Below, piece by piece: positions 340 through 63,534 of a DNA stretch of 64,000 bases (positions are counted from its first letter, which is position 1; each line of letters starts with the position of its first letter). The DNA is from Candidatus Komeilibacteria bacterium (lineage in GTDB: Bacteria; Patescibacteriota; Patescibacteriia; UBA1558). The stretch is from contig JBLYPW010000001.1 of the NCBI GenBank assembly GCA_048538275.1, positions 212,919 through 276,918 of the forward strand, written 5' to 3'. The notes beneath the pieces are model-generated. The model searched no databases, was not told where the DNA came from, and saw nothing but the letters and a program-made list of their open reading frames with translations. Position numbers and translations under genes: made by a program.

Positions 340-368
340 TTGATTTTTCCTTTTTTATCTGTTATAAT
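340..368 (+). promoter_or_regulatory. sigma70-like promoter (TTGATT-N17-TATAAT) upstream of the tRNA-Val region
   Basis: TTGATT at 340-345, 17-nt spacer, TATAAT at 363-368, read directly from the sequence. Confidence 0.5.
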
Positions 369-492
369 CAGCATACTTTGTGCTCTTTTTGGGTTTTATT
401 AGCATATTGGCTTATAGGATATATAACTTAATTTTAGCCAAAGGCTGACCAACCTTTGGTTGGGATTAGAGCGTTCACCCCGTTAAATCTTG

Positions 493-590
493 GGCGTATA
501 GCTCCCCGCACCACTCACTGCGTTCGTTAGCGGGGCAGGCAGTTGGTAGATCCGCCAGTTGGCGGACTCTTAAGCAAACGGTCGCAGTAT
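493..590 (+). repeat. pseudo-tRNA 5' fragment (13 nt identical to the tRNA-Val 5' end) fused to a conserved 38-nt GC hairpin element, ~100 nt upstream of tRNA-Val
   Basis: gggcgtatagctc at 493-505 equals tRNA-Val positions 1-13. It is followed by ccccgcaccactcactgcgttcgttagcggggcaggcag, whose near-identical copy lies in the same arrangement upstream of tRNA-Lys (62063-62113, minus strand). A degenerate D-loop-like AGTTGGTAGA follows. Confidence 0.6.
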
Positions 591-607
591 TAATAAAATA
601 AAATCTT

Positions 608-684
608 GGGCGTATAGCTCAGTTGGTTAGAGCGCTACATTCACATTGTAGAAGTCTCAGGTTCAAATCCTGATACGCCCACCA
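608..684 (+). tRNA. tRNA-Val (anticodon CAC)
   Basis: Manual cloverleaf: acceptor gggcgta/tacgccc, D arm gctc-agttggtta-gagc, anticodon loop ttCACat, T arm tcagg-ttcaaat-cctga, encoded CCA. Confidence 0.85.
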
Positions 685-701
685 TTAATAGCCCAATTTA
701 A

Positions 702-727
702 CGGGGCAAGTTCACATTGTAGAAATC
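702..727 (+). repeat. second tRNA-Val-derived fragment: the 3' end of the 38-nt element (cggggcaag) fused to the tRNA-Val anticodon-arm sequence ttcacattgtagaa
   Basis: Direct sequence comparison with tRNA-Val 639-652 and with the element at 529-537. Confidence 0.5.
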
Positions 728-872
728 AGAGTTTGTTGTTTTCTCATGTTTACCACGTTTGTAGATACATTGTCATCGCTCTTATGATATGCAAAAATTT
801 GTTGGTTTAAAATGAGTTAGTCATTATTGCACCAAAACATATTTATTATTTTATAAACATATATATAATTCA

Positions 873-3687: not shown

Positions 3688-5634
3688 ATGCTAAAATTTT
3701 TTGACATGATGAAAAAAAAGAGAACCGCTGTTTTGTTATCTTTATTGATTGCAGCGGTTCTTTTTTTGTGGGCAATGGGTGTGCAGGCGGTCAATGATTT
3801 GGGCTTGAGTACGGCTCAGCAAATTGGTTTGGGCACGACTCCTTTGCCGGATATTGTAGTCAATGTCGTGCATGTGTTTTTGGGATTGCTGGGCTTGTTA
3901 GCGGTCATTTTTGTATTATATGGCGGCTTTGTTTGGATGACGGCCGGTGGCAACCCTGATAAAATAAGTCAAGCAAAAAAGATATTGATTAATACGGTCA
4001 TCGGCATAGTGATTATATTGTCTTCGTATGCTTTGACAGAATTTTTATTTAGACAATTTGGCTGGGTTACTGGATTACAAAATAATGTGGTGAATCAGTC
4101 ACGCGATAACTCTTATTATTATAGTGGTGGCTTGGCCGGCGGTATTATTCGGGCACATTATCCTCAACGTGGCGATGTTGATGTACCGCGCAATGTTGCT
4201 ATTGCCATTACTTTTAAAGAAGCTATTGATCCGACCACCATTATTGGCGACGACGGTAAGATAATTGTTGACAATGTCAGTATTAGCACCTTAGACGGCG
4301 CGGCTCTAACTGATATTAGCGTTAGCACGGTGGATAATTTAACTTTTATATTGCGACCGGATCAGTGGCTGGGCAATGATCAGGCGGCGGTTTGGTATCA
4401 AGTAGGTTTGCTTTCCGGCATTCAAAAAAGCAATGGCGACCCGGCTTTTGGTCCTTTAGGAAATTATAGTTGGCAATTTGCCACTAGCACTGAAGCAGAT
4501 ACGACACCTCCTCAAGTAACGAGTATTACGCCCAGCGCCGATAGTACTGAGCCGCGTAATGTAGCCGTGCAGATTAACTTTAATGAGCCGGTTGATCCTA
4601 CTAGTGCCAGCGGTGATAGTAATAATTTTTCTAATATTATACTTAGTGATATGTCTGATCAAATAGTATCAGGCACTTATACTATAACCAATCAGTACCG
4701 TACCGTAGAATTTTTAACTAATGATTTGTGTGGTCAAAATTCTTGTGGTGATGATGTCTATTGTTTGCCGGCAGACGAATTATTAAACGCTTTGATCAAA
4801 GCCGCCAGCGTGGGTGTCTTACCTTATGACGGCGTGGTGGACATGGCGGGTAATAGTTTAGATGGCAATGCTAATGGTCAAGCGGAAGGATCTTCTACTG
4901 ATGATTATGGCTGGAATTTTAATACCACCAATGACATTGATATTACGGCACCACAAGTTAAAGAAGTTACTCCAGATACTTCAGCCAATGGTATTAGTAC
5001 TCGTGCTAGAGTACGGGCTGATTTTAATAAGCCTATGCTGTTGAGCTCTATTAATGGTGACTCTATGCAAATAGATCAAGGAGTGAATTATTGGATCAAT
5101 AGTACGATTCAGGATAATACTACCATGAGTTATATTAATCACGATGAATTTATTACGCAGACTACTTATCATCCTCGTATTACCAATGCCTGTCGCGATA
5201 TTTACCAAAATTGTTTTAATCCGCCGCAGGGTCCCAATGAATGGCTGATTTCTCCGACGGGCGATTGGGCCTGGATAGATGGTACTACTAGTGGTGATAT
5301 TGCTAGCGATTCATTGGGTACTAGCTTGACCCTAAGCGCTGGTAATAGTAGTGGCGCTTGGGTATCAGCCGCTATGAGTGCTGATGCGCCAGTAGCTGTG
5401 ATGGCTGTTTTTGCTCAGGATTTGTTGGATAATGGTAGTCAGACGCAGATTTTTGTGCGTAGCGCCAATACCATTGCCAATCTAAATAATGCAACCTGGA
5501 TGGCAGTAGGTTATGACGGACAGCTCAATTTGCCTGCGGCGAATTATTGGCAACTCAAAGCAGAATTAAGTAGCGTGGCAGATGATAGCGTGCCTACAAT
5601 TTTTCAAATTAGCCTTAATATTGATAAATCTTAA
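3688..5634 (+). CDS. surface protein: signal peptide, then a T4SS-pilin-like (VirB2/TrbC-type) two-helix module, then three SbsA-type Ig-like (Big_5-like) domains
   Basis: Signal peptide. Hydrophobic hairpin ..HVFLGLLGLLAVIFVLYGGFVWMTAGGNPDKISQAKKILINTVIGIVIILSSYALTEF. Repeated PRNVA(I/V)xIxFxExIDP Ig-like units. Stop/start overlap (TAATG) with the next gene. Confidence 0.8.
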   Translation: MLKFFDMMKKKRTAVLLSLLIAAVLFLWAMGVQAVNDLGLSTAQQIGLGTTPLPDIVVNVVHVFLGLLGLLAVIFVLYGGFVWMTAGGNPDKISQAKKILINTVIGIVIILSSYALTEFLFRQFGWVTGLQNNVVNQSRDNSYYYSGGLAGGIIRAHYPQRGDVDVPRNVAIAITFKEAIDPTTIIGDDGKIIVDNVSISTLDGAALTDISVSTVDNLTFILRPDQWLGNDQAAVWYQVGLLSGIQKSNGDPAFGPLGNYSWQFATSTEADTTPPQVTSITPSADSTEPRNVAVQINFNEPVDPTSASGDSNNFSNIILSDMSDQIVSGTYTITNQYRTVEFLTNDLCGQNSCGDDVYCLPADELLNALIKAASVGVLPYDGVVDMAGNSLDGNANGQAEGSSTDDYGWNFNTTNDIDITAPQVKEVTPDTSANGISTRARVRADFNKPMLLSSINGDSMQIDQGVNYWINSTIQDNTTMSYINHDEFITQTTYHPRITNACRDIYQNCFNPPQGPNEWLISPTGDWAWIDGTTSGDIASDSLGTSLTLSAGNSSGAWVSAAMSADAPVAVMAVFAQDLLDNGSQTQIFVRSANTIANLNNATWMAVGYDGQLNLPAANYWQLKAELSSVADDSVPTIFQISLNIDKS

Positions 5635-8600
5635 TGCGCAAAGCATCGCATAAAAAAATATTTTTTGTTTTCTTGGCTTTGTTATTAATACCAATTATTA
5701 GTTTTGCGCAAGCTAATTTAGGTTTAGATACGGCTGGCAGCATTGGTTTGGGTACAACTGATTTACCGGTAATTATCGTTAATATTATAAGAATATTTTT
5801 GAGTTTATTGGGCTTGATTGCTGTTGGTGTTATTATTTGGGCTGGTTTGCAGTGGATGACAGCCGGTGGCAACCCAGAGCAGGTCGGACGGGCAAAAAAG
5901 TGGATGATTAATGGTTTGATCGGTCTGGTCATAATCATGGCCTCTTTTGGGATTGCTAGTTTTGTTATTAATAATTTAAAACAAGCTACTGGCTTGAGCG
6001 AAGCTACAGGTGATAATAATAGTTCGGGTGGTGGCGGTTTGCCTGGTGGTGGTTTTGTTTTGAGTAGTTGGCAACCAAGTAACAATAGTAGTGATTGGCC
6101 ACGTAATATTATAGTACGAGCTTATTTTAGCGGTGTCATTGATGCCACCACGCTTGATGAGAATGATATCACTTTTATTGACACCACTAGTAATAATAAT
6201 ATTCCTTTTGTTTTAGAGGCCAATGGTAGTCGTTTAGATATAGCGCCACAAAATAGTTGTGCTGTTGATGGCGTTGATTATTGTTTGCCAGCAGATCATG
6301 CTTATCAGGTAAGTATTGTAAATGGATCAATACGTTCTTTAGCTAACCATACTTTACAATGCGGACAAAATTGTCAGACGGTTTTTTCCGTTGGCAATAG
6401 TATTGATAATACTGCTCCCAATTTTGCGCTAGTGCAACCGGTGGCTGATAGTTTAGTAGCGCTTGATTCATTGGTACCGATTTTAGGTCAGCCAAATGAT
6501 AATAGTAGTGTTATTGCAGCGGTGACTTTTTTGGCTAATGATGATGTTGTTCAACCAGTTGGTAGCGATACGGATGGTGAGCCGTGGACAGTTGACTGGG
6601 TAGTGTCTGGCTATAATGCTGGTGAGATATTAAGTTTAAGTGCTACAGCGGAAGATTTGAGTGGCAATGTGGGTTATGCCCCTGATGTGCGGGTTATTGT
6701 GAGGCCGGAGCATTGTTTCAACGGCTATCAAGACGCTGATGAAACCGGTATTGATGTGGGAGGTAGTTGTGGCGCTGCTTTGGGAGAGTCATGCAATGTT
6801 AATAATAGTTGTGGCAATGGTGATCAATTTTGCGCGGAAGGGAGTTGTAGTGAAGTAACCTGTACTTGTGAAGCCAAGCCCATTGTCATGAGCATTACAC
6901 CCGCTGATGGTGCGGTAGGAAATTTAATTACTATTTATGGTAGTGGTTTTGGTCAAGATTTGGGTGTAGTGACTTTTTTGGGTAGTGCAGCTAGTGGCGA
7001 TGAACAGCTTGGTGATTTAAATGTTTGTTTACAAAGCTGGACCAATAATCAGGTTATAGTAGCAGTGCCAAATAATGCGGTTAGTGGGGGGATTAAATTA
7101 ACTACGGCCAGCGGACGTTTTGATACCACTTTGGATGAATTAGGATGGCAAGGAGAATTTGATGTAAATACCGTGGTGCGACCGGGTTTGTGTTCAGTTG
7201 ATCCAACGATTGGACCGGCCTTGTCACTGGCTAGTGTACAAGGTATTAATTTAGGTTCAAGTGCTGACAATCAAAACTTATTTGTAGGTGGTCAGTCGGC
7301 CAATATTGGTACTTGGCAAAATTCAGCAATTGATTTTATAGTTCCAAATCTACTGCCCAGTAGTCAGCCAGTGAGTATTTCTATACAAAATGACCAGCAA
7401 GAAAATAGTAATCCGGTGTATTTTGTGGTGCAGCCAGACATAGTGACACCACATTTATATAGTATTAATCCGGCTGGAGGGCCAGCGGGTCAGTATATTA
7501 CCTTGACGGGTACAAATTTTGGTACAAATCCGAGCGAAGTAAATGTCAAATTTGTGGCCGCTGATAATACTGCCACGGAAGCAGATATAGATTTTCCGGC
7601 AATGTGTGGAGAGCGACAAATTAGTAATACGGAAATGGTGGTAAAGGTGCCAGCGATCGCAGTGGGCGACTATGCCGTGGACGTTCGCCGTTTGGGTAAG
7701 GTGAGTGAGTCCATTGATTTTTCAGTTGTCAGTGGTCAGCCAGGGGCAGGATTGTGTGCTTTATTGCCAGATAATGGACCCAATGGCATTAGCGTGCAGG
7801 TAGTAGGTGATAATTTTTCTAATGATGGAAGTGTCAATTTTTATAATAATCAAACAGCCCAGACTAGCAATTGGCAAGCTAATAGCGTTGACACCGTTGT
7901 ACCGGCTGATGCAGTGAGTGGGCCGGTGAGCATGATGCTGGCAGGACAGGTTAGTAATAGCATAAATTTCTCGGTGGGCACTTGTAGTCCCGGACCGGGC
8001 GAGGAATTGTGTGCTGATGGCAGCTGTCGTCCGGTAGGAGAATGTTTAAATATACCGGCAGATGATGACTATACTTGGTCTTTTACCACGGGCGAGGCGT
8101 GGCCACCCTTCGTTGTTAGTGATTATTGGCCGGCTTGTAATAGTGCTTGTACAAATGCTGATGTAGCAGCGGTTTTTTCCAATCCATTGGATACAAATAC
8201 AATTATGAACAATGTTGAGATTTGGGATTGTGGTGAGGATGACATGTGTCTATCATCTGAGCAAATTGATTTGACCAATGGCAATGTTTGGGGCGGTAAT
8301 TATGATGCGAGTAACAATGTATTGCATTTTTTACCTTTGGGCATTAGCGCTAATCACAATTATCGCGTAGTTATGACCATGGGTAATGATGGTATAAAAA
8401 ATGCCGTAGGTGAAAATTTAACTAATCCTAATTTTGATAAAAATGGTGACGGAATAGATGATAGCTTTGCTTGGATTTTTAGTACTGGCGAGCAAGCATG
8501 TGTTCCAGCGCGCGCTGAGGTTTTGCCATCTCCTATTAAGTTTACTCGTTTAGAACAAAGTGAAACTGTCTACCCTTATCCTTATTCGGCGGCTGACAGT

Positions 8601-11600
8601 TGTAGCGCAACAGGACAACCTTTGTTGGCCAGTGATTATAGTTGGGCATGGAGTCTAAGCTCAGCGCTGCCAATAACTTTAGCAGTGGGAAGTAATTATG
8701 CCATTGTTCGCCCTCGGGCTGATGGCCAATCAAGGGTATTGGCAAGGATAAATGATTATGGTGTTATTGGTAGAAGCTTTGTTACCGTGGATATGGACAT
8801 TCCTGTTATTACCGCTATTAGTCCGGATAATGGTACGACAAATACTAATGTAAAAACTTTGGTTACCATTAGCGGTTATAATTTTGGCGAACATCAGGGT
8901 AGTAGTTATGTGGAAGTGGGCGGTACACGGGCGCAGTTGGCTGATTGTGGTATACCTTGGAGTGATACGCAAATTATTATAGAATTACCAGCCACTACGC
9001 AGAGTGGTGATCATATTAAAGTCATAAAAACTACTGGTGAGGATATTTCAGACCAGGCCTTTACGGTGAATAATATTATTAGACCGGCATTGTGTGGTAT
9101 TTCTCCCAATTATGGCACGGACGGTGATAGCGTGACTTTATCAGGCTATAATTTTGGCGATACCCAAGTTGATAGTATGGTAATGTTTGATCAGCTGGGA
9201 GTGGATACAATCAATAGTTGGTCTAATCAGTCCATTCGTACTATCGTACCGCCAGGTGCTAGTACGGGTCCGGTTTATGTTAATGTTCTTGGTAATAATT
9301 CTAATGCCATTAATTTTTCTTTGGAGCCATTTATAACCAAGCTTGATCCGAACAATGGCCCGGTCAATAGTTATGTTACTATTTATGGTGGAAATTTTGG
9401 TGATACTAGAGGTAATGGTCGGGTGATGATTGGTGGTCAATTAGCGAACTTAGCCCCTTGTGTTGATAATTGGAACAATACCACTATTATCGTTCAGGTA
9501 CCGGAAGGTCTTGATCTGGGCAAGTGGCCGGTACAAATATTTACAGCTAATAATATTCCCACCAATACGGTAGATTTTACAGTCAATGAAAATCCTTTGA
9601 ATCCACTATTGTGCCAGCTGGATCCAAATTGGGCGAGTAATAATGAAAGTATAAAATTGAAAGGTGATAATTTTGGTGACGCTCCCTATTTTGCCGGAGC
9701 AGAAAATGTAGACATGGCAGTGGGCGCTGATTATAGTAATATTATGGACCGTTCATGTATTTATAATAATGGTACTTATATTGGTTCTTGCAGTAATCTA
9801 TGGGTGGACTATCAGTTTAATTTTAATGCGGATGGTTATTATAATGCTTGGGCGGAGACCAGTAATAATGGTATAGATCTTACCGATCAAGGAATCTATC
9901 ATAATGTAGTTGTTTATCTTGACGGTCAATATATAGGTCAGTTCAGCAATGTAGCATCAAACCCAGATCACAATTTAGGTAGTGTGGGTTTGGGTTGGGT
10001 GAGCGCCGGTAATCATACGGTGAGATATTATTGGAATAATGATTGGTGTGGTGGTTGTGGTGATGGCATAGGCGATTCTAATATTCTATTTCATAAGGTT
10101 GGTATAGATGAGGGCGCTCCGATGAGCTATGCTTTATTTACTGATAATTATGCTGCTGAGACAAATAGCTGGCAAAACACAGAAATGAGCGCCAATATCA
10201 ATGAGTCGGTATTATCAGGTCCAGTTAGTTTGGTTAAAGAGGTGGTGACTGGTCGACAGTGCGCTGGTTTTCATATTGGCGGTTGGTGTCCGGGTGGAGT
10301 TTATGATGATATTACTACTACGACACAAAGTAATAGCTTGTCCTTTATCAAGGGCTGTGTGATTGGTACTACTTCTTCGCGAGTAGAAGGTTATATTCCC
10401 ACGGTGGCGGAAAATAGTGAGGCGGTGGGAACTTTAGCTACAGATGGTAGATTTTTATATGGTAAGAGTTGGGGTGGCTATGATAGGCACGATCGGTTGA
10501 TAACAAGAATTGGCAGTGGTTATCAGTATACTGTTCTTGGCAAAGTTTATAGTCATTTAGCTTATGTTGCGGACAGCTTAACTATGACTTATTATCCGGA
10601 TGGATATATATATAATGGTTATTCTACCAATGGGCATAATTTGCAACGGATCAATGCGGGAACTGGTTCCACTGATATGAGTTTAAATATTCCTGATGGT
10701 TTGCTGAATCGTAATACGGGGGAGGTTTATTCAGGAGTAAGAAGTGATTATTTAATTACTTCTGATGGTACATATATTTATAATTTAGCTTTTAGTACTC
10801 ATGCCTGCCCCCAAAATTATGGCAACCGTTGTTATGATGGATTCAAAGTTAGGGTTTTTGATCCAATGGATGATATGAGCTTGGTAAGAGAATGGACATC
10901 TGGTACAGATTCATTTTATACCGACGGTATTATCGCGGATGGTAAATATGTTTATGCCTTTGAATGGAGTGGCCAGCACAGAGTACGAAAAATGGATGCC
11001 ATCACCGGAGAGTTTGTGGCAGAATGGATATCCGAACAAGGCGGTCCAACTGGTGAGGGTAATGATATTATTTCCGGTCAATATGATTGGGTCAATGATA
11101 CAGTATGGATGGGTGATTTAGTTGATCATAGTCGCAATCCTGGCCCGGCTTATATTTATCAATATAATAGTTGTCATTTTGAAGACGGTGTGCTATTTCC
11201 AAGGTGCGGTGATGGTATATTGCAACAGAATGGCGAACCGGGTGATAGTTATGATTATACTTCTGCTCACAGTGGCAATATCAATTCTTATTATGAGCAA
11301 TGTGACGATGGTAATCTTATTAACGGGGATGGTTGTAGCTCGTGGTGTGCTCTTGAATCAGTGCCAGTCAGTAGTAATTTTATTATTACTGATCATGAGC
11401 CTGCAGTGGACGCTCCTGCCAATACCACCATCCGTTTGTTTTTCAGTGATAATGTTGCGACCGGTTCATTGGCCGATCGTGATATTACGATTACAGCCGG
11501 CGAAAATAATTTAAGTTGGAATGCATCAGTGAATAATAATGTCATTACTCTATTACCAACCCAAGTTTGTGGCGCCCCACATACAGACTTACGATGCTGG

Positions 11601-14600
11601 CCTACTAATCAGCGATTACAAGTCGTGGTAGCTGAGGGTAGTATTAAAAATATTCATAATCAGGGACTTAGTTGTAATAATGGTAAATGCGAATTTCATA
11701 TACAGACAACTGATCAAGTGGATGTGATAGCGCCACAAATCAGCTTGTTGACACCTACACAGGGTCAACAAGTACCGGTGGGCAGTTCAATAGCAGTGCA
11801 GGCTCAGGCTACCGATGATACTGACGTGGCTTATGTTGATTTTGCTATTGATGGTCAGTCGGTTGGTATTGTTAACCAAACGGGTATTTTTTCTGGTGAT
11901 CAATCTTATACTGTTTTGAATTATTTCCAGACTTTGCGGAGTGTTGATATTAACAATGACGGTTATGAAGATTTGCTAGCTTTTTCCAATAATGAGAGAG
12001 GATTTTCCGTGTTATTGAATAATGGTTGGGGAGGTTATATAGCTAAAGATTATAATGTGGGGGCTTATTATTATTCTTATGATTCAGGTTTTGGCATATG
12101 GGATGTAAATAATGATGGTTATTTAGACGTATTGCTTGGTAATAATAATTATGCCGGAAAGTTTTATATATTTTTGAATAATGGTGACGGTACTTTTGCC
12201 TCTCGTCAGACCTATGATTCGGCCGGACATTATCCGCGCGCCATAGCGACTGGCGATCTCAACGGCGATGGTTATAATGACATTGCAGTAGCGAATGATA
12301 GGGGGGATGGTAATAATATAGAATTAGTGATATTTGCCGGCGACGCTCAAGGTCATTGGTACTTGGTCAAGCAATTGAATATTGCTGATGATTATTCTGT
12401 TACCGGTTTAGCTATCAGCGATTATGATAATGACGGTAAAGATGATATCGCTGTATTGCAACGTTATCATAGTAGTAATAATTTACATATTTATTGGGGG
12501 CAAGAAAATTTAGCGAGCGATTGGCAAAAACTAGCTATGAATTCAGGTGGTTATTCTTATCAATTAGTTAGTAGTGATATAGATAATAACGGCAATGAAG
12601 ATTTGTTAATCTTGATGTACCATAGTGGGGATGATTATAGCTATTATATACAAGTGTTATATAATCAAGACAATAGAATATTTAGTCAGAGTAGTTTGCC
12701 TCAGAGTGACGGACATCACTACTATGTTACCAACTCTTTATTGATAAAAGACACAGATAATGATGATTATTCTGAGATATTTGCTAGAGAGGGTAATGTA
12801 ATAGTGCGTTGGGATAATAATGGCGGCGCAATTAGCGCACCAGCGGTATTGTCTAATGTACCTAGCTCAATATATACATTAACTGATACAAATAATGATA
12901 ATAGATTTGATATTATAAGCCGCAATAGTAACACGGATGCCATAGTGCTACTAAATAATGGTGACGGTACTTATGGTAGTAATAATATAGTTAGTTTTCC
13001 TTATGCTATGAAAAGTGTAGTGGCTAATGATTTGGATGGTGATGGCCTACCGGAGTTGATTATGCCGTATGTCAATAGTATTAGTAGGGGAGTAACAATT
13101 TATAGAACAGGCGCGGCTGGTTATCAAGAACAATCTAATTTTGATATCTTTTATGATCTGACGGCAAGAGCTACTGGTCGTTTATATGGCGCCTTACCTG
13201 ATAATAGTGGAAGTTATTATGGCTGGTGGGGCGGAGATTGGCATGCTGGCACGGGCGTTGGTAGCGGTCCGGTTTATGCCCAAGTGAGTGGTCAAAGTAC
13301 AGATTCAACCATAGTCAGTGGTAATTTAACACCCTCTCCTTATGATGGCGTCTATGCTGATTTTGATGTTGACTTGGGAGGTGGATTTAGCGTGCGTAGC
13401 ACTGGTTGGGTTTATGGTTATCCTAGTTTGTATCCTTATAGCGCAGCAGTTGGTAATTTTAATGGAGATGCTTATCAAGATATTATATTGCGTGATCGGA
13501 GTGGCTCTGGTAGCCATTATGATGCTCGTGTTTTAGCTGGTGGCTCAAATGGATGGCAAGAACAAGCGAATTATAATAACACTACTGGCGCATCTGGCTA
13601 TGATTGGCGTACGGCTACCAGAGGCATTTATCAACAGACCCAGGTAGTTGATATGAACAGTGATAATTCTGATGATTTTCTATTATTCAATGCAACAGGA
13701 GCGTTTAGTAGTTTTATTAATGATGGCACGGGTAAATTTACCGCAATCAATTATGAAGATTCTGATACTAATGATGCTTATCGTTTTGTGATGGGTGATT
13801 TAACTGGGGATAATATGCCTGATTTAGCTTATATTCAATACGAGTGGCAATCCAATAGTACAAACTTGTATATTGTAGAAAATAAAAATGGAAATTTAGA
13901 CTTTGCCCAACGCAGAGTTTTGACGTCACCTGATTATATAAATGGTTTGAGCATTGCCGATTTTAATAATGACGGCACAAATGATGTTATGGTGGTTTCG
14001 CAGTCAGCCGGTACGCTGTTTTATGACCGTAGTAGCGGCCAATGGCGGTCATATACTGCCGATATCAATGCTCCTAAATTGGCCAAAGCAGGCTTAGTGG
14101 ATAATGATGGTCTATTGGATATAGTAGTAGTAACAGATGGCGGCGGCGTACAAGTTTATTATAATCAAGGTGATTTTACCTTCACTAGCGGTGAATCTTT
14201 TACTTTGTTTAGTTATTACTATGGACCGGCTATCAATGATGACGCTTTGGCCATTGACGATTTTAATAATGATGGCCAGCAGGATATAGTTTTGAGCAGG
14301 TCATATGGCAGCGACTTGGCTTTTGTTTATCAAAAAGCCAACCCTGATTTATATAGTTATGCTTGGGATACTACCGGACTGATAGTAGGATCGCAACACA
14401 CAGTGCAGGCTACGGCTTATGATCTTGATAGCCATAGTACTAGTAGTCAATTAGTAACCGTAACTATTGGCTTGCAGGGAGATCATTGTACTGACGGTCT
14501 TATCAATTTTGACGAAAATGGTTTAGATTGCGGTGGCGCCGATTGTAGCGCCTGCCAGAATAATATTAGTGAGATTATTGTTAGTCCGCAAGAAGCTAAT

Positions 14601-17096
14601 GTAAATGTTGGTGAACAGATATTATTTAATGCCCAAGTCATAGATAATGATGGCAATCTTTTGTCAGATGCGATGGTTGATTGGACCAGCAATAGTTCTG
14701 ACAGTATTGGTATTAGTAGCGCGCTAGATGGTGGAATTTTAGTTAGTGGACAAATAGAAGGAGAGGCTATTATTACGGCCAGTTTAGGTGATATTAGCGA
14801 CGATGCCTTGGTTCACGTTGTTGTCCCTGTTAGTCCATGTGGTGATGGCATTGTTGATAGTAATATTGGTGAGCAATGCGATTTTGCGGCTGATGGTACG
14901 GTAATTATACCGGATAATTTAGCTTGTACCAGTTTTCCTGATTATGCTGCCGGTAGTTTGGGTTGTACGAGTCAATGCGAGTTGGACTTCAATCAGTGCG
15001 TGCCTGGCATACCCACATCAGGAGCTTGTGTAAATACAGAAATATCCGCTACGTTTGACAGTCCTATGCTTGCCTCTTCATTTACGCTTGATAAAGTACA
15101 TCTTTATAAACTATTAAGTAATGATGATTGGCAAGAAATACCTATCACTTTTAGTTTGGAAGACCGGCCAATTAGTGGCGAGCCAGAACAAACAATATTA
15201 TATATTCATCCCCTTGATGATCTAGATCCTTTTACCGTTTATAGAGCGGTAGTGTCTGGGGGTAGCGGTGGAGTTATGGATATGGGAGGAAGTATTTTAC
15301 CAAATGATTATGCGTGGCAATTTGATACTGGTGAAACTTTTTGCTTTATTGATCGCGTTGCTATTGAGCCAGATAGTTATGAATTTAATTCAGTGGATGA
15401 ACAAATTAACTTTATAGTGCATGCTTATGACAACGAAAATAATGTCATCAACGGTAATTATAATTGGCAGCTAGAAGGCAATAGCGAGTTAGTGAATATT
15501 GGCAATAATAATGGGCAAATTATTACTGTACAGCCAACTGGTATCGGCAATGGCGCTTTGAGTTTACGTGCCTTGGTTGATAGTGGAGCTCAGGGAAATG
15601 GTGAGGCAGTGGCGCCAATTGATATTTTTATGTGCGGTGCTCCTTGGCAATATAGTAATGACAGCTATAATTTTGCTGTTAAATATTGTCGTGGTGATGG
15701 GCCTAATATGATCTATAATAGTGGTTTTGAGCAAGATAATAACAATGATATTTATCCGGATGGTTGGGAAATGCCTATTGGCAATGCCCTGGTTAGTGAT
15801 TATACTGCTAGATTGGATGAGGACGGTAGCGGCAAGGTCTTTACTATCATTCAAAACAATACTGCTACGATTAGTCATGATCGCGTTTTGGTGCGTCAGT
15901 ATGTGCCGGTCAAGCCACAAACTACTTATAGCATCAATTTTAAAATTAAAGCCGAAAATATAAATAATAGACCGGTGGAAATATATGAGCTGGCGGATAG
16001 AAACGGTGCCAGGCTGGGTGATCAGCCACTTTCTTCTGGTAGCATTGGTAGCTATGATTGGGAGACTAATAGCTTAATAATTCTTACTAATGCCGATACC
16101 AATTATTTGGAAGTGGGCTTGGTATTGTATATGAGTCGTGATAATAATTTATCACAGATTTGGTTTGATGATATGCAATTGGAGCTTGGTAATCAAGCCA
16201 GTAGCTATCAGGCTAGTAATTTATTGCCGGATTTGGTAGTCAGTGAAGTAGGAAGTGGTTTTGATGATCCAAATTTACTAACGACTATATTATTGAGTCA
16301 ACAAGTTTATGGCAGTGATGACGCTATTGGCATGCGGGTCTATAGTAATTTTGATCATCTTGACCCTCTGAGCTGGTATCAAAACAATATAGTGACCCAA
16401 GGACAGCCCCAGTCCATTATAGTCGGAGGTTATAGCGCTTTGCAGGAAGGGCGCAGCACTTATGTTAATGCCGCAAATATAGCTGGCGCTGATGTATATA
16501 CCAATATTTATCTTTTATCTTATACTCAGGGAGCTGGTAATGATACGCAAAATATGTTCACGCAAATTTATAATAATTGGTCTTTTAATACTAATTTAAG
16601 TTCCGTGGCTTTGCGGCAAAGATTAGTGAACGATACTTTACGCTGGGAAGGTTTAAATATATTGGATAACTCACTGCGGGAGTATTATGATAAATATGGC
16701 TTTTATCCTAAATTATTGTCTGGCACTTATCAAGTAGGTAATAGTGTATCGGTTTGGGATTCTTGGCAATCAACATTAGCCACTGCTTTGGGTATAGTCG
16801 CACCGATTGACCCCATCAATAGTCATAGTATTTGTCCTGCCGGGTACGACTCTGTGACTTGTTGGAATCCTGAGCAGCAAGATTATGTTTGCCCGTTAGG
16901 TTCTCATATTTATCAGTATCATGCTTTATCTTCTGGACAACATTTTGAATTGAATAGCAATTTTGAGTATGGCGGGGTTATCTGGCGGGGGAGTTTTCAG
17001 TTGCCAGTTGACATGAGCGAGGAGTGCGACAATATCATTTGGAGTGATCAGGATATTGACAGTAATGAGGCACAAGATGGCATACGAGGCATATAA
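5634..17096 (+). CDS. giant (3820 aa) surface adhesin-like protein whose N-terminal module is a paralog of the 3688-5634 product
   Basis: The architecture, in order: signal peptide; pilin-like module (..WMTAGGNPEQVGRAKKWMINGLIGLVIIM..); Gly linker; Ig-like domains; EGF-like Cys clusters; about 8 IPT/TIG-like units (P..x.I.P..G..G..(I/V)T(I/L)xGxNFG); a propeller-like region; Cys-rich CGDGI..EQCDDGNLINGDGCSSWC repeats; about 15 FG-GAP/VCBS-like DxNxDGxxD repeats; two Big_2-like domains; a CBM-like C-terminal domain. It is a single uninterrupted ORF. Confidence 0.85.
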   Translation: MRKASHKKIFFVFLALLLIPIISFAQANLGLDTAGSIGLGTTDLPVIIVNIIRIFLSLLGLIAVGVIIWAGLQWMTAGGNPEQVGRAKKWMINGLIGLVIIMASFGIASFVINNLKQATGLSEATGDNNSSGGGGLPGGGFVLSSWQPSNNSSDWPRNIIVRAYFSGVIDATTLDENDITFIDTTSNNNIPFVLEANGSRLDIAPQNSCAVDGVDYCLPADHAYQVSIVNGSIRSLANHTLQCGQNCQTVFSVGNSIDNTAPNFALVQPVADSLVALDSLVPILGQPNDNSSVIAAVTFLANDDVVQPVGSDTDGEPWTVDWVVSGYNAGEILSLSATAEDLSGNVGYAPDVRVIVRPEHCFNGYQDADETGIDVGGSCGAALGESCNVNNSCGNGDQFCAEGSCSEVTCTCEAKPIVMSITPADGAVGNLITIYGSGFGQDLGVVTFLGSAASGDEQLGDLNVCLQSWTNNQVIVAVPNNAVSGGIKLTTASGRFDTTLDELGWQGEFDVNTVVRPGLCSVDPTIGPALSLASVQGINLGSSADNQNLFVGGQSANIGTWQNSAIDFIVPNLLPSSQPVSISIQNDQQENSNPVYFVVQPDIVTPHLYSINPAGGPAGQYITLTGTNFGTNPSEVNVKFVAADNTATEADIDFPAMCGERQISNTEMVVKVPAIAVGDYAVDVRRLGKVSESIDFSVVSGQPGAGLCALLPDNGPNGISVQVVGDNFSNDGSVNFYNNQTAQTSNWQANSVDTVVPADAVSGPVSMMLAGQVSNSINFSVGTCSPGPGEELCADGSCRPVGECLNIPADDDYTWSFTTGEAWPPFVVSDYWPACNSACTNADVAAVFSNPLDTNTIMNNVEIWDCGEDDMCLSSEQIDLTNGNVWGGNYDASNNVLHFLPLGISANHNYRVVMTMGNDGIKNAVGENLTNPNFDKNGDGIDDSFAWIFSTGEQACVPARAEVLPSPIKFTRLEQSETVYPYPYSAADSCSATGQPLLASDYSWAWSLSSALPITLAVGSNYAIVRPRADGQSRVLARINDYGVIGRSFVTVDMDIPVITAISPDNGTTNTNVKTLVTISGYNFGEHQGSSYVEVGGTRAQLADCGIPWSDTQIIIELPATTQSGDHIKVIKTTGEDISDQAFTVNNIIRPALCGISPNYGTDGDSVTLSGYNFGDTQVDSMVMFDQLGVDTINSWSNQSIRTIVPPGASTGPVYVNVLGNNSNAINFSLEPFITKLDPNNGPVNSYVTIYGGNFGDTRGNGRVMIGGQLANLAPCVDNWNNTTIIVQVPEGLDLGKWPVQIFTANNIPTNTVDFTVNENPLNPLLCQLDPNWASNNESIKLKGDNFGDAPYFAGAENVDMAVGADYSNIMDRSCIYNNGTYIGSCSNLWVDYQFNFNADGYYNAWAETSNNGIDLTDQGIYHNVVVYLDGQYIGQFSNVASNPDHNLGSVGLGWVSAGNHTVRYYWNNDWCGGCGDGIGDSNILFHKVGIDEGAPMSYALFTDNYAAETNSWQNTEMSANINESVLSGPVSLVKEVVTGRQCAGFHIGGWCPGGVYDDITTTTQSNSLSFIKGCVIGTTSSRVEGYIPTVAENSEAVGTLATDGRFLYGKSWGGYDRHDRLITRIGSGYQYTVLGKVYSHLAYVADSLTMTYYPDGYIYNGYSTNGHNLQRINAGTGSTDMSLNIPDGLLNRNTGEVYSGVRSDYLITSDGTYIYNLAFSTHACPQNYGNRCYDGFKVRVFDPMDDMSLVREWTSGTDSFYTDGIIADGKYVYAFEWSGQHRVRKMDAITGEFVAEWISEQGGPTGEGNDIISGQYDWVNDTVWMGDLVDHSRNPGPAYIYQYNSCHFEDGVLFPRCGDGILQQNGEPGDSYDYTSAHSGNINSYYEQCDDGNLINGDGCSSWCALESVPVSSNFIITDHEPAVDAPANTTIRLFFSDNVATGSLADRDITITAGENNLSWNASVNNNVITLLPTQVCGAPHTDLRCWPTNQRLQVVVAEGSIKNIHNQGLSCNNGKCEFHIQTTDQVDVIAPQISLLTPTQGQQVPVGSSIAVQAQATDDTDVAYVDFAIDGQSVGIVNQTGIFSGDQSYTVLNYFQTLRSVDINNDGYEDLLAFSNNERGFSVLLNNGWGGYIAKDYNVGAYYYSYDSGFGIWDVNNDGYLDVLLGNNNYAGKFYIFLNNGDGTFASRQTYDSAGHYPRAIATGDLNGDGYNDIAVANDRGDGNNIELVIFAGDAQGHWYLVKQLNIADDYSVTGLAISDYDNDGKDDIAVLQRYHSSNNLHIYWGQENLASDWQKLAMNSGGYSYQLVSSDIDNNGNEDLLILMYHSGDDYSYYIQVLYNQDNRIFSQSSLPQSDGHHYYVTNSLLIKDTDNDDYSEIFAREGNVIVRWDNNGGAISAPAVLSNVPSSIYTLTDTNNDNRFDIISRNSNTDAIVLLNNGDGTYGSNNIVSFPYAMKSVVANDLDGDGLPELIMPYVNSISRGVTIYRTGAAGYQEQSNFDIFYDLTARATGRLYGALPDNSGSYYGWWGGDWHAGTGVGSGPVYAQVSGQSTDSTIVSGNLTPSPYDGVYADFDVDLGGGFSVRSTGWVYGYPSLYPYSAAVGNFNGDAYQDIILRDRSGSGSHYDARVLAGGSNGWQEQANYNNTTGASGYDWRTATRGIYQQTQVVDMNSDNSDDFLLFNATGAFSSFINDGTGKFTAINYEDSDTNDAYRFVMGDLTGDNMPDLAYIQYEWQSNSTNLYIVENKNGNLDFAQRRVLTSPDYINGLSIADFNNDGTNDVMVVSQSAGTLFYDRSSGQWRSYTADINAPKLAKAGLVDNDGLLDIVVVTDGGGVQVYYNQGDFTFTSGESFTLFSYYYGPAINDDALAIDDFNNDGQQDIVLSRSYGSDLAFVYQKANPDLYSYAWDTTGLIVGSQHTVQATAYDLDSHSTSSQLVTVTIGLQGDHCTDGLINFDENGLDCGGADCSACQNNISEIIVSPQEANVNVGEQILFNAQVIDNDGNLLSDAMVDWTSNSSDSIGISSALDGGILVSGQIEGEAIITASLGDISDDALVHVVVPVSPCGDGIVDSNIGEQCDFAADGTVIIPDNLACTSFPDYAAGSLGCTSQCELDFNQCVPGIPTSGACVNTEISATFDSPMLASSFTLDKVHLYKLLSNDDWQEIPITFSLEDRPISGEPEQTILYIHPLDDLDPFTVYRAVVSGGSGGVMDMGGSILPNDYAWQFDTGETFCFIDRVAIEPDSYEFNSVDEQINFIVHAYDNENNVINGNYNWQLEGNSELVNIGNNNGQIITVQPTGIGNGALSLRALVDSGAQGNGEAVAPIDIFMCGAPWQYSNDSYNFAVKYCRGDGPNMIYNSGFEQDNNNDIYPDGWEMPIGNALVSDYTARLDEDGSGKVFTIIQNNTATISHDRVLVRQYVPVKPQTTYSINFKIKAENINNRPVEIYELADRNGARLGDQPLSSGSIGSYDWETNSLIILTNADTNYLEVGLVLYMSRDNNLSQIWFDDMQLELGNQASSYQASNLLPDLVVSEVGSGFDDPNLLTTILLSQQVYGSDDAIGMRVYSNFDHLDPLSWYQNNIVTQGQPQSIIVGGYSALQEGRSTYVNAANIAGADVYTNIYLLSYTQGAGNDTQNMFTQIYNNWSFNTNLSSVALRQRLVNDTLRWEGLNILDNSLREYYDKYGFYPKLLSGTYQVGNSVSVWDSWQSTLATALGIVAPIDPINSHSICPAGYDSVTCWNPEQQDYVCPLGSHIYQYHALSSGQHFELNSNFEYGGVIWRGSFQLPVDMSEECDNIIWSDQDIDSNEAQDGIRGI

Positions 17097-35336: not shown

Positions 35337-35413
35337 CGGGGTGTAGCGCAGTTGGCTAGCGCGTACGCATGGGGTGCGTGAGGTCGCGGGTTCGAGTCCC
35401 GCCACCCCGACCA
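35337..35413 (+). tRNA. tRNA-Pro (anticodon GGG)
   Basis: Manual cloverleaf: acceptor cggggtg/caccccg, anticodon loop atGGGgt, T arm gcggg-ttcgagt-cccgc, encoded CCA. Confidence 0.8.
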
Positions 35414-35732
35414 GATTAAACTTTTTTCAAAATCAGAGGCGTTTTGTTGCTCGTTCGCCGCGTTTCCGTCCCGCCTGCGCGGGGCTTCGTTCGCATTTTT
35501 CTCTATATTAAGGTTAAAGCTTTGAAATTTTTGCAGATCAAATGAAGCTGTATTTAAATAAGAGGATAAGGCAGTTAATACCATTATTACTTATCTGCAG
35601 GCCAAGCAAATCAAGAGTCAAAACGAGTGATATGTTATAATACTTATATGAATGTTACAATGCTGTATTGGTAAATTTTTATCAAATTTATATTTGTATC
35701 ATTTGCATTGTTAAATTATTAATTACTAATAT

Positions 35733-61658: not shown

Positions 61659-61796
61659 ATGGTAAAAATAGTTGATTGAACGATGTTATGGGGCCTTAAA
61701 TTGCTTCTCTATTTTAAGTAAAAAGTCAGGATAAAGCAAGGGTTTATTATGCAGACATTTTCCACCTATTAATAACAATTTTTTGTTAATAAAAAA

Positions 61797-61836
61797 ACAG
61801 TCTTTTACTTAGACCCAAAGGGTTAAGCGAAAGACT
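61797..61836 (-). terminator. rho-independent terminator downstream of tRNA-Lys (minus strand)
   Basis: cagtcttt...aaagactg stem; on the minus strand it is followed by a T7 run. Confidence 0.55.
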
Positions 61837-61907
61837 GAAAACAAGAATTCGCTTGAACGGCGAAGTGGTTGCGCCTTATGCGCAAGTACATAATTGTGAG
61901 TAAGAAG

Positions 61908-61984
61908 TGGTACGCGCAGAGGGATTCGAACCCCCGACCATCTGCTTAAAAGGCAGCTGCTCTACCAGGCTGAGCTATGCGCGC
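61908..61984 (-). tRNA. tRNA-Lys (anticodon UUU)
   Basis: Reverse complement folds as acceptor GCGCGCA/TGCGCGT (G1-U72), D arm GCTC-AGCCTGGTA-GAGC, anticodon loop cuUUUaa, T arm GGGGG-TTCGAAT-CCCTC, encoded CCA. Confidence 0.8.
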
Positions 61985-62113
61985 CCGTGGAAATAAAATA
62001 TACCTTAGATTATATTAAGAACTTTTAAATAGCCACATAGCCAATGAGCGAAGCCTGGAAGGCTGCTTGCCCCGCAAACGAACACAAGTGAGTGATGCGG
62101 GGAGCTATGCGCG
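61985..62113 (-). repeat. second copy of the pseudo-tRNA-5' plus 38-nt GC hairpin element, upstream (minus strand) of tRNA-Lys
   Basis: The reverse complement of 62063-62113 is cgcgcatagctc + ccccgcatcactcacttgtgttcgtttgcggggcaagcag. The first 12 nt equal the tRNA-Lys 5' end. The 38-nt core has about 5 mismatches to the copy at 506-543. Confidence 0.6.
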
Positions 62114-62260
62114 TTCACGATAAAACGATGGTATTATAGGGGAATGGTAATTTATTGTCAATATCGTTGTTGATAGTATCGTAAAATTGTTTAGATTTTG
62201 TTATAATTATATAGCTTGATCGTATATTTTAAAGGAGAGTTAATTATTAAAGTAAATATT

Positions 62261-63136: not shown

Positions 63137-63161
63137 AAACCGGCCTGCGAGGGCCGGTTTT
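63137..63161 (+). terminator. rho-independent terminator
   Basis: aaaccggcc-tgcgag-ggccggtttt. Confidence 0.6.
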
Positions 63162-63284
63162 AATGTAATATGTTTTTTTACAACTGTGTATTATTTAATC
63201 AACAAATGTTAGAGTTTAGATAGGCCCGAGCAGCTTGCGCCGCGTCCGTCTCGGGAGGAAGAGTCGGTTTTCATTTGTGCATAT

Positions 63285-63360
63285 TCTGGAGTAGTTCAAT
63301 TGGTAGAACGCTGCGCTGTTAACGCAGAGGTTGGGGGTTCAAGTCCCTCCTCCAGAGCCA
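63285..63360 (+). tRNA. tRNA-Asn (anticodon GUU)
   Basis: Manual cloverleaf: acceptor tctggag/ctccaga, anticodon loop ctGTTaa, T arm ggggg-ttcaagt-ccctc, encoded CCA. Confidence 0.85.
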
Positions 63361-63398
63361 CATCTGTAGAGACAATTCATGAATTGTCTCTACAGATG
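63361..63398 (+). repeat. perfect 18-bp inverted repeat (hairpin) immediately 3' of tRNA-Asn
   Basis: catctgtagagacaattc-at-gaattgtctctacagatg. Confidence 0.8.
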
Positions 63399-63534
63399 TG
63401 GCTTATTATTTATCCCAAGTACAAGTTTATTTTTTTATTATAATTTTAAAGTTAAGCTATAATAAATAGAGATGCTTAGTTAATGGGTAAAAGTCTATTG
63501 TGTGGTTTTTTAGCTACTATGATATAATTCCTCC

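Follow-up and report, generated by a model that had tools for sequence, protein, structure and literature searches.

Hairpin-capped 5' stubs upstream of tRNA-Val and tRNA-Lys in a Komeilibacteria genome: candidate scars of small insertions that regenerate the tRNA gene

tRNA genes are classic landing sites for mobile DNA. Here we describe two tRNA loci, tRNA-Val and tRNA-Lys, in a 64-kb stretch of the core chromosome of a Candidatus Komeilibacteria metagenome-assembled genome (Patescibacteria, also called the candidate phyla radiation, CPR). This whole stretch, which has a GC content of 39%, is called the window below, and all results for the genome itself cover the window. At both loci an intact tRNA gene is preceded by a short stub of its own 5' end, and the stub runs directly into a GC-rich hairpin, termed HP1, that is nearly identical at the two genes. 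The comparison set consisted of ~800 kb of related DNA, in which all tRNAs were scanned, with ~24 distinct CPR tRNA-Lys loci; a 1.5-kb Logan contig from a near-identical strain was used as an independent comparison. The coordinates of the features are collected in Table 1. The items described at the Val locus in an initial annotation of this DNA are all present, although their coordinates are one base off: the stub lies at 492-504, not at 493-505.

At the Val locus, the reported identity of the stub to tRNA-Val nt 1-13 is real and in fact extends further, since the stub is part of a perfect 20-nt direct repeat that runs 7 nt upstream of tRNA nt +1. The hairpin that follows has a stem of 6 bp, all GC, and spans 504-535. 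The sequence beyond it had been taken for a degenerate tRNA-Val D-loop, but the segment 540-587 shows no match to tRNA-Val beyond the D loop and is instead a fragment of tRNA-Lys. It aligns best with the L092-type tRNA-Lys, which belongs to another Komeilibacteria lineage (score 51, reached by 0/1000 shuffles), and it also matches, with a score of 63, a pseudo-tRNA-Lys that lies upstream of tRNA-Lys in L079, a distant CPR genome. Within this fragment, nt 24-31 are expanded to a 16-nt palindrome, TCCGCCAGTTGGCGGA, at 551-566. The palindrome is followed by CTCTTAAG, and HP1 is followed by CAGGCAG. The palindrome-modified tRNA-Lys fragment is ~86% identical between two distant CPR lineages; it had no match in IMG/VR.

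Downstream of tRNA-Val, the reported fusion of the end of HP1 to the anticodon-arm sequence of tRNA-Val was borne out, as the match of 711-724 to tRNA-Val beats 2000/2000 shuffles. This match opens a displaced and decayed 3' portion of the gene, which is identical to tRNA-Val over its first 14 nt, has the same length and ends in ACCA. In L002, an independent Logan assembly, the first 17 nt of the downstream fragment are identical to the gene. The stub and tRNA-Val are together bracketed by a perfect inverted repeat of 11 nt (478-488/696-706), extended by TGGGC/GCCCA and possibly accompanied by a TTCA duplication. In predicted folds the left arm (478-488) is also able to pair with the hairpin 3' arm at 527-535, and TTAACGGGGCA, within 696-710, is identical at 10/11 positions to the hairpin 3' arm 527-537. 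Further upstream, the segment 459-477 resembles the D loop, the D stem and the start of the anticodon loop; its alignment to nt 15-27 has a score of 21, which was matched by 56/2000 shuffles. The position of 438-477 is that of tRNA-Val in the relative L171 with respect to the shared leader. A remnant of an older tRNA-Val 5' part may survive here, a reading that is suggestive only. Compared with L171, tRNA-Val of the window is flanked on each side by ~190 additional nt.

The second copy of the hairpin, which the initial annotation had placed after a tRNA-Lys stub ~61 kb away, was also recovered (62063-62102, - strand). It is identical to the Val copy at 35/40 positions (88%), with one indel (E=0.004 against 800 kb). 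At both loci HP1 stands exactly between T12 and C13 of a truncated tRNA-like fragment, in the arrangement TAGCT/CCCCGC...GCGGGGCARG/CAG..., and tRNA-like sequence resumes beyond it, the sequences past HP1 being unrelated between Val and Lys. Two different tRNA fragments of one genome have the same 36-nt hairpin at T12/C13. Chance does not account for these matches, as shuffles of the window gave none for HP1 and shuffles gave none for the downstream Val junction.

Beyond HP1 in the Lys leader comes tRNA-Lys nt ~31 to 1 in a diverged, inverted copy. The inverted copy is also found after the hairpin in L005, a relative with a homologous insert; shuffles did as well in 64/2000 cases for the window and in 4/2000 for the homologous segment of L005. 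A 14-mer, CTTCCAGGCTTCGC, is identical in the window Lys leader and in L005. A consensus fold of the Val, Lys and L005 copies of the hairpin gives a 9-bp helix that includes G10-C11-U12 of the stub, with one compensatory change and two changes of G-C/A-U to G-U, among only three sequences. The Val and Lys copies of HP1 are closer to each other than to the orthologous Lys hairpin of L005, with which they have only the stem and short motifs in common. This inverted copy, the Lys fragment at the Val locus and the bracketing 11-nt inverted repeat are additions to what the initial annotation had seen.

Table 1. Features of the tRNA-Val and tRNA-Lys loci, and the other tRNA genes (n=4 in all) of the window
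Feature	Position	Strand	Sequence or description
Val promoter	340-368	+	TTGATT-17-TATAAT, upstream TG; sole good sigma-70-like site upstream of tRNA-Val on the same strand
Possible older tRNA-Val 5' remnant	438-477	+	Hairpin CCAAAGG..CCTTTGG (438-459), then GTTGGGATTAGAGCG + TTCA (459-477)
Inverted repeat, left arm	478-488	+	CCCCGTTAAAT; 11/11 complementary to 696-706
Direct repeat, two copies	485-504 and 601-620	+	Perfect, 20 nt, AAATCTTGGGCGTATAGCTC; AAATCTT + tRNA-Val nt 1-13
Val stub	492-504	+	GGGCGTATAGCTC; equals tRNA-Val nt 1-13
HP1, Val copy	504-542	+	39-mer CCCCGC...GCGGGGCAGGCAG; stem CCCCGC/GCGGGG (504-509, 530-535), 20-nt loop, tail CAGGCAG
tRNA-Lys-derived fragment	540-587	+	nt ~13-53, anticodon CTT; by sequence alignment
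AT-rich spacer (Val)	588-607	+	Ends in direct repeat copy 2 (601-607, AAATCTT); without promoter-like site
Intact tRNA-Val(CAC)	608-684	+	73.9 bits
Inverted repeat, right arm, + CAAG	696-710	+	ATTTAACGGGG (696-706) + CAAG
Downstream junction	702-710, then 711-724	+	CGGGGCAAG, then TTCACATTGTAGAA; the latter equals tRNA-Val nt 33-46
Displaced, decayed tRNA-Val 3' portion (nt 33-77)	711-755	+	45 nt ungapped, 28/45 identical
tRNA-Pro	35337-35413	+	
Intact tRNA-Lys(UUU)	61908-61984	-	68 bits
AT-rich spacer (Lys)	61985-62031	-	Without promoter-like site on the tRNA strand
Diverged inverted copy of tRNA-Lys nt ~31 to 1	62032-62065	-	AGCAGCCTTCCAGGCTTCGCTCATTGGCTATGTGGC; alignment against shuffles
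HP1, Lys copy	62063-62102	-	Directly follows stub
tRNA-Lys stub	62102-62113	-	CGCGCATAGCTC; equals tRNA-Lys nt 2-13
Lys promoter	62133-62161	-	TTGACA-17-TATAAT, consensus 12/12
tRNA-Asn	63285-63360	+	

These structures are not an assembly artefact, because independent assemblies carry the same ones: L002 has tRNA-Val with the downstream fragment, the homologous Lys element of the relative is present in NCBI and Logan assemblies (L005 and L006), and the version in L088 is present in NCBI, JGI and ENA assemblies. The Logan contigs, from the same or sister strains, themselves end close to or within these loci, L002 15 nt upstream of tRNA-Val and L006 inside tRNA-Lys with its duplicated 3' end. 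Loci with stubs and fragments may break short-read assemblies and may hence be under-reported.

Comparison of orthologous loci, as the initial annotation had proposed, revealed element-free sites in L007 and L003 (Lys) and in L171 (Val). L007 (DnaB 77% identical) has the orthologous TTGACA-17-TATAAT promoter, and 18 nt separate its -10 box from an uninterrupted tRNA-Lys. The same distance, 18 nt, separates the -10 box of the window's Lys promoter from the first stub-aligned base, with the exact repeat beginning one base later, and 11/18 nt between the -10 box and the start of the tRNA or stub match between the two. L003 (DnaB 80%) is likewise without the element at tRNA-Lys. At the Val site of L171 (HisRS 75%), the orthologous promoter is followed by a leader of ~55 nt, a plain tRNA-Val, 30 nt and lepB, with no extra pieces. 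L013 and L029 share one tRNA-Lys sequence; in L013 the promoter is ~25 nt upstream of the tRNA, and in L029 the same distance of ~25 nt separates the promoter from the stub. From these comparisons, the stub lies where the 5' end of the ancestral gene was, and the 5' end of the intact gene is the new copy.

In many CPR genomes tRNA-Lys adjoins dnaB, and its orientation relative to dnaB is divided about half and half across the CPR loci. The window and L005 differ in this orientation yet have a homologous insert. The promoter-stub-tRNA-Lys module (window 61700-62250) is inverted relative to SIMPL and dnaB when compared with L005 9340-10000. At the Val site, L172 (HisRS 77%) has kept the promoter and is without tRNA-Val. 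A T-loop-like remnant, TTCATCAAATCC, is found at L172 3780-3945, where tRNA-Val would follow the promoter, which suggests that the gene was deleted at this site in that lineage.

The arrangement recurs in other lineages. A 5' stub lies 72-134 nt upstream of the gene in 6 of the ~24 distinct CPR tRNA-Lys loci (window, L005, L029, L034, L079 and L088), and a 3' fragment lies 93-205 nt downstream in 5 (L005, L008, L013, L049 and L098). In the window and 10 related loci, the fragments are all co-oriented with the gene, 5' fragments being upstream and 3' fragments downstream. GC hairpins of differing sequence stand at T12/C13 of the tRNA-Lys stubs in L005, L029 and L034, from three other CPR lineages. 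The insertion follows TAGCT without target duplication in five cases; one of the loci, L029, has two tandem 15-nt hairpins. A TCCGCC/GGCGGA stem occurs in four lineages and also at a few places in CPR intergenic DNA that are not next to tRNAs. In L005, L029, L034, L079 and L088, tRNA nt +1 is the first base of the direct repeat, which in the window starts at +2 for Lys and at -7 for Val. Such starts would be expected if an insert has to restore the gene.

The strong promoter reported at 340-368 is real, with the sequence TTGATT-17-TATAAT. It is upstream of all the tRNA fragments, and it is conserved in L171 and L172. At both loci the sole good sigma-70-like site on the tRNA strand is upstream of the stub, and no promoter-like site was found between stub and tRNA. 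Because there is no promoter-like site other than the upstream one, the stub, hairpin and spacer are most likely transcribed with the tRNA as a pre-tRNA leader, of ~230 nt for Val and ~140 nt for Lys.

What the sequences establish is the anatomy of the loci, the element-free sites of relatives, where the promoters lie and that the pattern recurs in other lineages. That site-specific recombination inserted the DNA, that the leader is co-transcribed and that RNase P removes it are inferences. The reading that we favour, and to which we give about an even chance, is that small pieces of DNA were inserted site-specifically into tRNA genes, regenerating the gene each time, and that the structures are the DNA-level scars, with a passive, co-transcribed 5' leader left behind. 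Among the origins offered in the initial annotation, recombination scars with gene regeneration fit best: the stub is at the position of the relatives' tRNA 5' end, the repeat starts near nt +1 and the fragments are correctly placed.

In this scheme, a DNA piece of ~100-130 bp would have been inserted in the D-arm region of tRNA-Val and of tRNA-Lys, between T12 and C13. The insert would start with the GC-rich hairpin and end with a fresh copy of tRNA nt 1-12/13. An intact tRNA gene would be rebuilt downstream, and the original promoter and the first 12-13 nt would be left upstream as a dead stub. Such an insert would be too small to hold its own recombinase; either the enzyme is encoded elsewhere and mobilises the insert, which we favour, or larger elements have shrunk to these inserts as minimal att-bearing remains. 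Transcription of the intact tRNA would start from the old promoter, and the leader of stub, hairpin and spacer would be cut off by RNase P. The Val locus would have been hit more than once, leaving the foreign tRNA-Lys fragment, the bracketing inverted repeat and the displaced tRNA-Val 3' portion. Movement of DNA is suggested by the near-identity of HP1 at two tRNAs, by its much weaker likeness to the orthologous insert of the relative and by the presence of a Lys fragment at the Val locus. The idea of a small mobile or intron-like element is partly supported, the same hairpin being at the same T12/C13 position of two tRNA fragments and different hairpins being there in three other CPR lineages; an intron it is not, as the interrupted copy is truncated.

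A number of results weigh against insertion of this kind. A search for a recombinase or transposase found none near the two loci, nor did any of the 16 window ORFs (open reading frames) scanned show a recombinase domain, and the intervals of 70-205 nt between fragment and gene contain no ORF. No large version was found in which the same junction flanks kilobases of cargo, and in none of the loci compared does a tRNA fragment (>=13 nt) lie >400 nt from its gene. HP1 was not found in three public collections (GTDB, JGI and IMG/VR), so no mobility beyond this genome is seen. The inverted copy of the tRNA 5' end in the Lys leader is not predicted by simple integration, and the direct repeats vary in length (12, 13, 20, 24 nt and longer). 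In L088 and L079 a hairpin replaces nt 10-16 and nt 25-31, respectively, inside an otherwise continuous tRNA copy, as the palindrome at 551-566 does, which implies that hairpin acquisition is at least partly a separate process. Finally, the stub, the hairpin stem and the 14-mer are conserved between the window and L005 and the adjacent spacer is not, so that selection on the RNA is possible.

The searches for HP1 itself gave little. There is no third copy in the 64-kb window or in the ~800 kb of related DNA, and the HP1 core pattern had 0 matches in GTDB species genomes and 0 in IMG/VR. The sole match among JGI metagenomes (L001) was taken as chance, being in an unrelated, high-GC contig without a tRNA. 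Looser stub-plus-hairpin patterns had 69 matches in IMG/VR, which were unrelated, mostly in GC-rich contexts and with no stub of an adjacent co-oriented tRNA. In the window leaders and ten related loci, only the tRNAs matched Rfam 15, whether gathering or permissive thresholds were used, and no match over the leaders reached E<=1.

tRNA genes are reportedly the att sites of tyrosine-integrase islands and prophages, as Williams is said to have described in 2002. A tRNA fragment together with a regenerated gene is the principle by which islands in tRNA genes are mapped, and three crossover subsites have been described, namely the anticodon loop, the T loop and the T/acceptor junction (PMC4383910). 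Islands with a 5' fragment are a minority, 159/3919, and the Islander program rejects intervals <2 kb (PMC4383910). The loci described here resemble such tyrosine-integrase islands in having an intact gene and a displaced co-oriented fragment, 5' upstream or 3' downstream, with an identity block from the junction to the tRNA end. They also resemble them in having empty sites in relatives (L007 and L003 for Lys, L171 for Val), and the junction of the downstream Val fragment, from nt 33 onward, fits the anticodon-loop crossover class. In contrast to the islands, the interval is 70-205 bp, there is no integrase, the T12/C13 junction in the D arm is outside the three subsites, and there is a GC hairpin at every junction. 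The finding is best filed as tRNA-gene insertion with regeneration, in a variant with four unusual features: a 5' piece, a D-arm junction, a length of 100-130 bp without a recombinase, and a hairpin cap. A pattern of this kind, which looks like a scar, is not known to have been described at this position or size.

Integrative elements without a recombinase of their own include IMEX (integrative mobile elements exploiting Xer), which use the host XerCD, and CIMEs (cis-mobilisable elements), which derive from ICEs (integrative and conjugative elements); they are kilobases long and lie at dif or at the ends of protein genes. As in IMEX and CIMEs, repeats of att type flank DNA without its own recombinase here, but the DNA is short, the site is the tRNA D arm and no enzyme was identified. 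Small palindromic mobile sequences are known as well, such as the GC clusters of yeast mitochondrial DNA, the double-hairpin elements of Allomyces mitochondrial DNA and the PATEs (palindrome-associated transposable elements) derived from IS200/IS605. The hairpins described here are like these in being GC-rich, 15-40 nt long and in an AT-rich genome, with a fixed short target, no obvious duplication and near-identical copies at separate loci. They are unlike them in that there are only two copies in 64 kb, both in tRNA fragments, with no Y1 transposase seen in the window; the single hairpin is also shorter than any characterised transposable unit. As for the hallmarks of miniature inverted-repeat transposable elements, there is the 11-nt inverted repeat 478-488/696-706, the direct repeats vary between 12 and 24 nt, and HP1 has two copies in 64 kb only.

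A serious, though less likely, alternative is that no integrative element was involved, and that the loci arose by local fold-back or template-switch duplication, of the tandem-inversion-duplication type, combined with a separate small GC-rich palindromic insertion sequence with the target TAGCT^CAG. Errors of replication or repair at the hairpin-rich tRNA gene would here have made partial copies, direct and inverted, of the ends of the gene. Palindrome insertions in D arms would then survive only in redundant dead copies, and survivorship of this kind would yield what is seen, namely a hairpin in all pseudo 5' fragments and in no intact tRNA. Tandem inversion duplications by snap-back at quasi-palindromes have reportedly been described in Salmonella by Kugelberg, Reams and Roth. 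The Lys locus is like them in having direct, inverted and direct copies of one short region, with a palindrome at the junction. The inverted copy of tRNA-Lys nt ~31 to 1 after the hairpin, in both the window and L005, and the inverted T-arm copies with which the 3' inserts of L008, L013 and L049 begin on the left also argue for duplication by fold-back. A separate palindromic insertion is in keeping with the hairpins that break otherwise continuous tRNA copies in L079, in L088 and at 551-566, with the tandem 15-nt hairpins of L029, which were inserted cleanly between T12 and C13 with no target duplication, and with the TCCGCC..GGCGGA hairpins in CPR intergenic DNA away from tRNAs. However, the copies here are tens of nt long and not kilobases, the second junction is without inverted upstream sequence, and the shared HP1 is left unexplained. 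The start of the duplication exactly at tRNA nt +1 in 5/7 cases would be unexpected from random events, the Lys fragment at the Val locus would need an additional transfer between loci, and no transposase candidate was found. The simple tandem-inversion-duplication model was rejected, because the spacer beyond the inverted copy does not match the inverted upstream leader as that model requires.

We consider it unlikely that the structures represent an undescribed class of miniature insertion elements specific to tRNA genes of CPR. Such elements would cut either the anticodon loop or, at T12/C13, the D arm, and would bring a replacement 5' end or even a whole replacement tRNA (478-710); the host would be addicted to the element's copy, and the leader of stub, hairpin and anti-stub would be able to gate tRNA maturation.

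Also unlikely is a functional cis-acting RNA, in which the stub, the hairpin and the anti-stub segment would form a tRNA-like three-way junction in the pre-tRNA leader. The anti-stub would pair with the stub or with the 5' strand of the real tRNA and so gate folding and RNase P processing, in the manner of an anti-antisense switch; alternatively, the leader would bind a tRNA-binding factor or act as a decoy for it. Co-transcription of the leader is almost certain, as the only promoter is upstream and conserved. The inverted copy in the Lys leader is predicted to pair with the stub, closing a three-way junction, and its fold is more stable than those of shuffled sequences (z = -2.5); the fold predictions for L005, L088 and L029 include closing stems of the same sort. 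The two changes of G-C/A-U to G-U keep pairing only on the sense strand, and together with the one compensatory change, the conservation of 14-mer and stub (and not of the neighbouring spacer) between window and L005, and the ~86% identity of the palindrome-modified tRNA-Lys fragment across two distant CPR lineages, they could point to selection on an RNA. On the other hand, the covariation comes from three sequences only, the loop sequences are unrelated between lineages, no Rfam family matches, and the leaders of Val, L005, L034 and L079 fold no better than shuffles. Fold-back duplication would yield alternative pairings automatically, so these are no evidence of function. The element is also patchy, being absent from L003, L007, L092-L098, L171 and ~15 other loci at the same tRNA. 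The regulatory tRNA-mimic suggested in the initial annotation therefore keeps its premise of transcription, there being no other promoter, but the patchy presence in close relatives weighs against a regulatory device.

Full-size prophages or islands that integrated and then lost nearly everything, leaving attL and attR side by side, are very unlikely: tRNA-Lys and tRNA-Asn are used by real integrated elements of these bacteria, such as a gene cluster that abuts the 3' end of tRNA-Asn in L007, and the fragment configuration fits att scars, but the gap between fragment and gene is 70-205 nt in every one of at least 11 cases, with no intermediate size, where gradual erosion should spread the sizes, and precise excision leaves no scar.

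Other identities for the hairpin were rejected. Archaea have split and intron-containing tRNA genes, including the split tRNAs of Nanoarchaeum and introns with non-canonical bulge-helix-bulge (BHB) motifs. The likeness consists of a short GC-rich paired insert and, at Val, of 5' and 3' pieces that adjoin the complementary GC-rich segments 478-488 and 696-706. Unlike such genes, the interrupted copies here are truncated and decayed, with an intact gene between them, and there is no match to a group I model. Group I introns occur in tRNA genes of Patescibacteria (PMC13011429). Unlike the hairpins here, the CPR tRNA introns known to date are ribozymes hundreds of nt long that occupy the anticodon loop. 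An intron or split tRNA, of group I or BHB type, was rejected because the interrupted copies are without a T arm and a 3' acceptor strand; neither ARAGORN nor Rfam found a second tRNA at the interrupted copies. A CRISPR repeat, or an omega-RNA or guide junction, was considered because GCGGGGCARG precedes tRNA-derived sequence three times; the idea was dropped, because gene fragments account for the tRNA-derived matches and neither a cas nor a tnpB-like gene was seen. A terminator or attenuator was rejected because HP1 has no U run, and there is no terminator-like site in 1-900. A derivation of the HP1 5' half from a copy of a tRNA 3' end plus trailer was too weak to claim.

The compact arrangement would be filtered out by design in current surveys. 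Detection tools expect kilobase islands, an integrase, a 3' fragment and a crossover in the anticodon or T arm, and the CPR loci have inserts of 100-200 bp, often on the 5' side, at the D-arm position and with a GC hairpin cap. Mobile inserts would represent a new kind of non-autonomous element in highly reduced genomes and would point to a recombinase that uses a new tRNA sublocation. Were they instead scars of rearrangement, the single-copy tRNA genes of streamlined genomes would have been repeatedly broken and rebuilt in place. In either case, several CPR tRNAs would come from precursors with leaders of 130-270 nt that hold a copy of the tRNA's own 5' end. This bears on annotation, on pre-tRNA processing and on assemblies, as short-read contigs break at these repeats (L002 and L006).

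Several further observations were made at tRNA genes. A conserved GC-rich element of ~100 nt lies downstream of tRNA-Lys in L013 (2070-2170), L049 (1450-1545) and L034 (50-115), in all three on the - strand, between the tRNA-Lys terminator and the duplicated tRNA 3' end. It has the blocks GGGATCGAAGGGCAG ... CGACGAA.CGAGC ... GGCGCTGCCCAGGAC, and its left end is an inverted T-loop copy that pairs with the duplicated T-arm strand; it had no Rfam match. Downstream of tRNA-Pro in the window (35440-35500), a GC-rich patch has a hairpin CCCGC-CTGC-GCGGG flanked by two TCGTTCGC motifs, which resemble the GTTCGTT motif of the HP1 loop. Upstream of tRNA-Asn (window 63139-63284), a hairpin at 63225-63255 (CCCGAG..CTCGGG) has a 6-bp GC stem and a 19-nt loop. 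It is inside an insert, on either side of which stands a copy of the preceding terminator's 3' half; these repeats are decayed in the window, and the orthologous tRNA-Asn insert of L005 (8224-8480, - strand) is flanked by direct repeats of 42 nt. The architecture of this mini-insert is that of the Val and Lys loci, but without a tRNA stub. A perfect palindrome of 24+24 nt (window 63356-63403; AGCCACATCTGTAGAGACAATTCA / TGAATTGTCTCTACAGATGTGGCT) starts inside the tRNA-Asn 3' end, with the last 5 nt of the tRNA reused in what is probably a terminator.

The cluster that abuts the tRNA-Asn 3' end in L007 (1-5742) encodes a Zot-like protein, a rolling-circle replication initiator (REP_ORF2-G2P) and a large serine recombinase, whose ORF overlaps tRNA-Asn by 15 nt. 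The cluster is probably an inovirus-like element that has integrated into this CPR genome. tRNA genes are not usually targeted by serine recombinases.

The remainder of the window contains lepB-hisS, a giant surface protein, ftsA/ftsZ, ribosomal-protein operons, recR and dnaB. In the region 5634-17096, an ORF of 3820 aa follows a protein of 648 aa with T4SS-pilin and Big_5 domains, and the same arrangement is found in L171. These are giant surface proteins of the kind typical of CPR.

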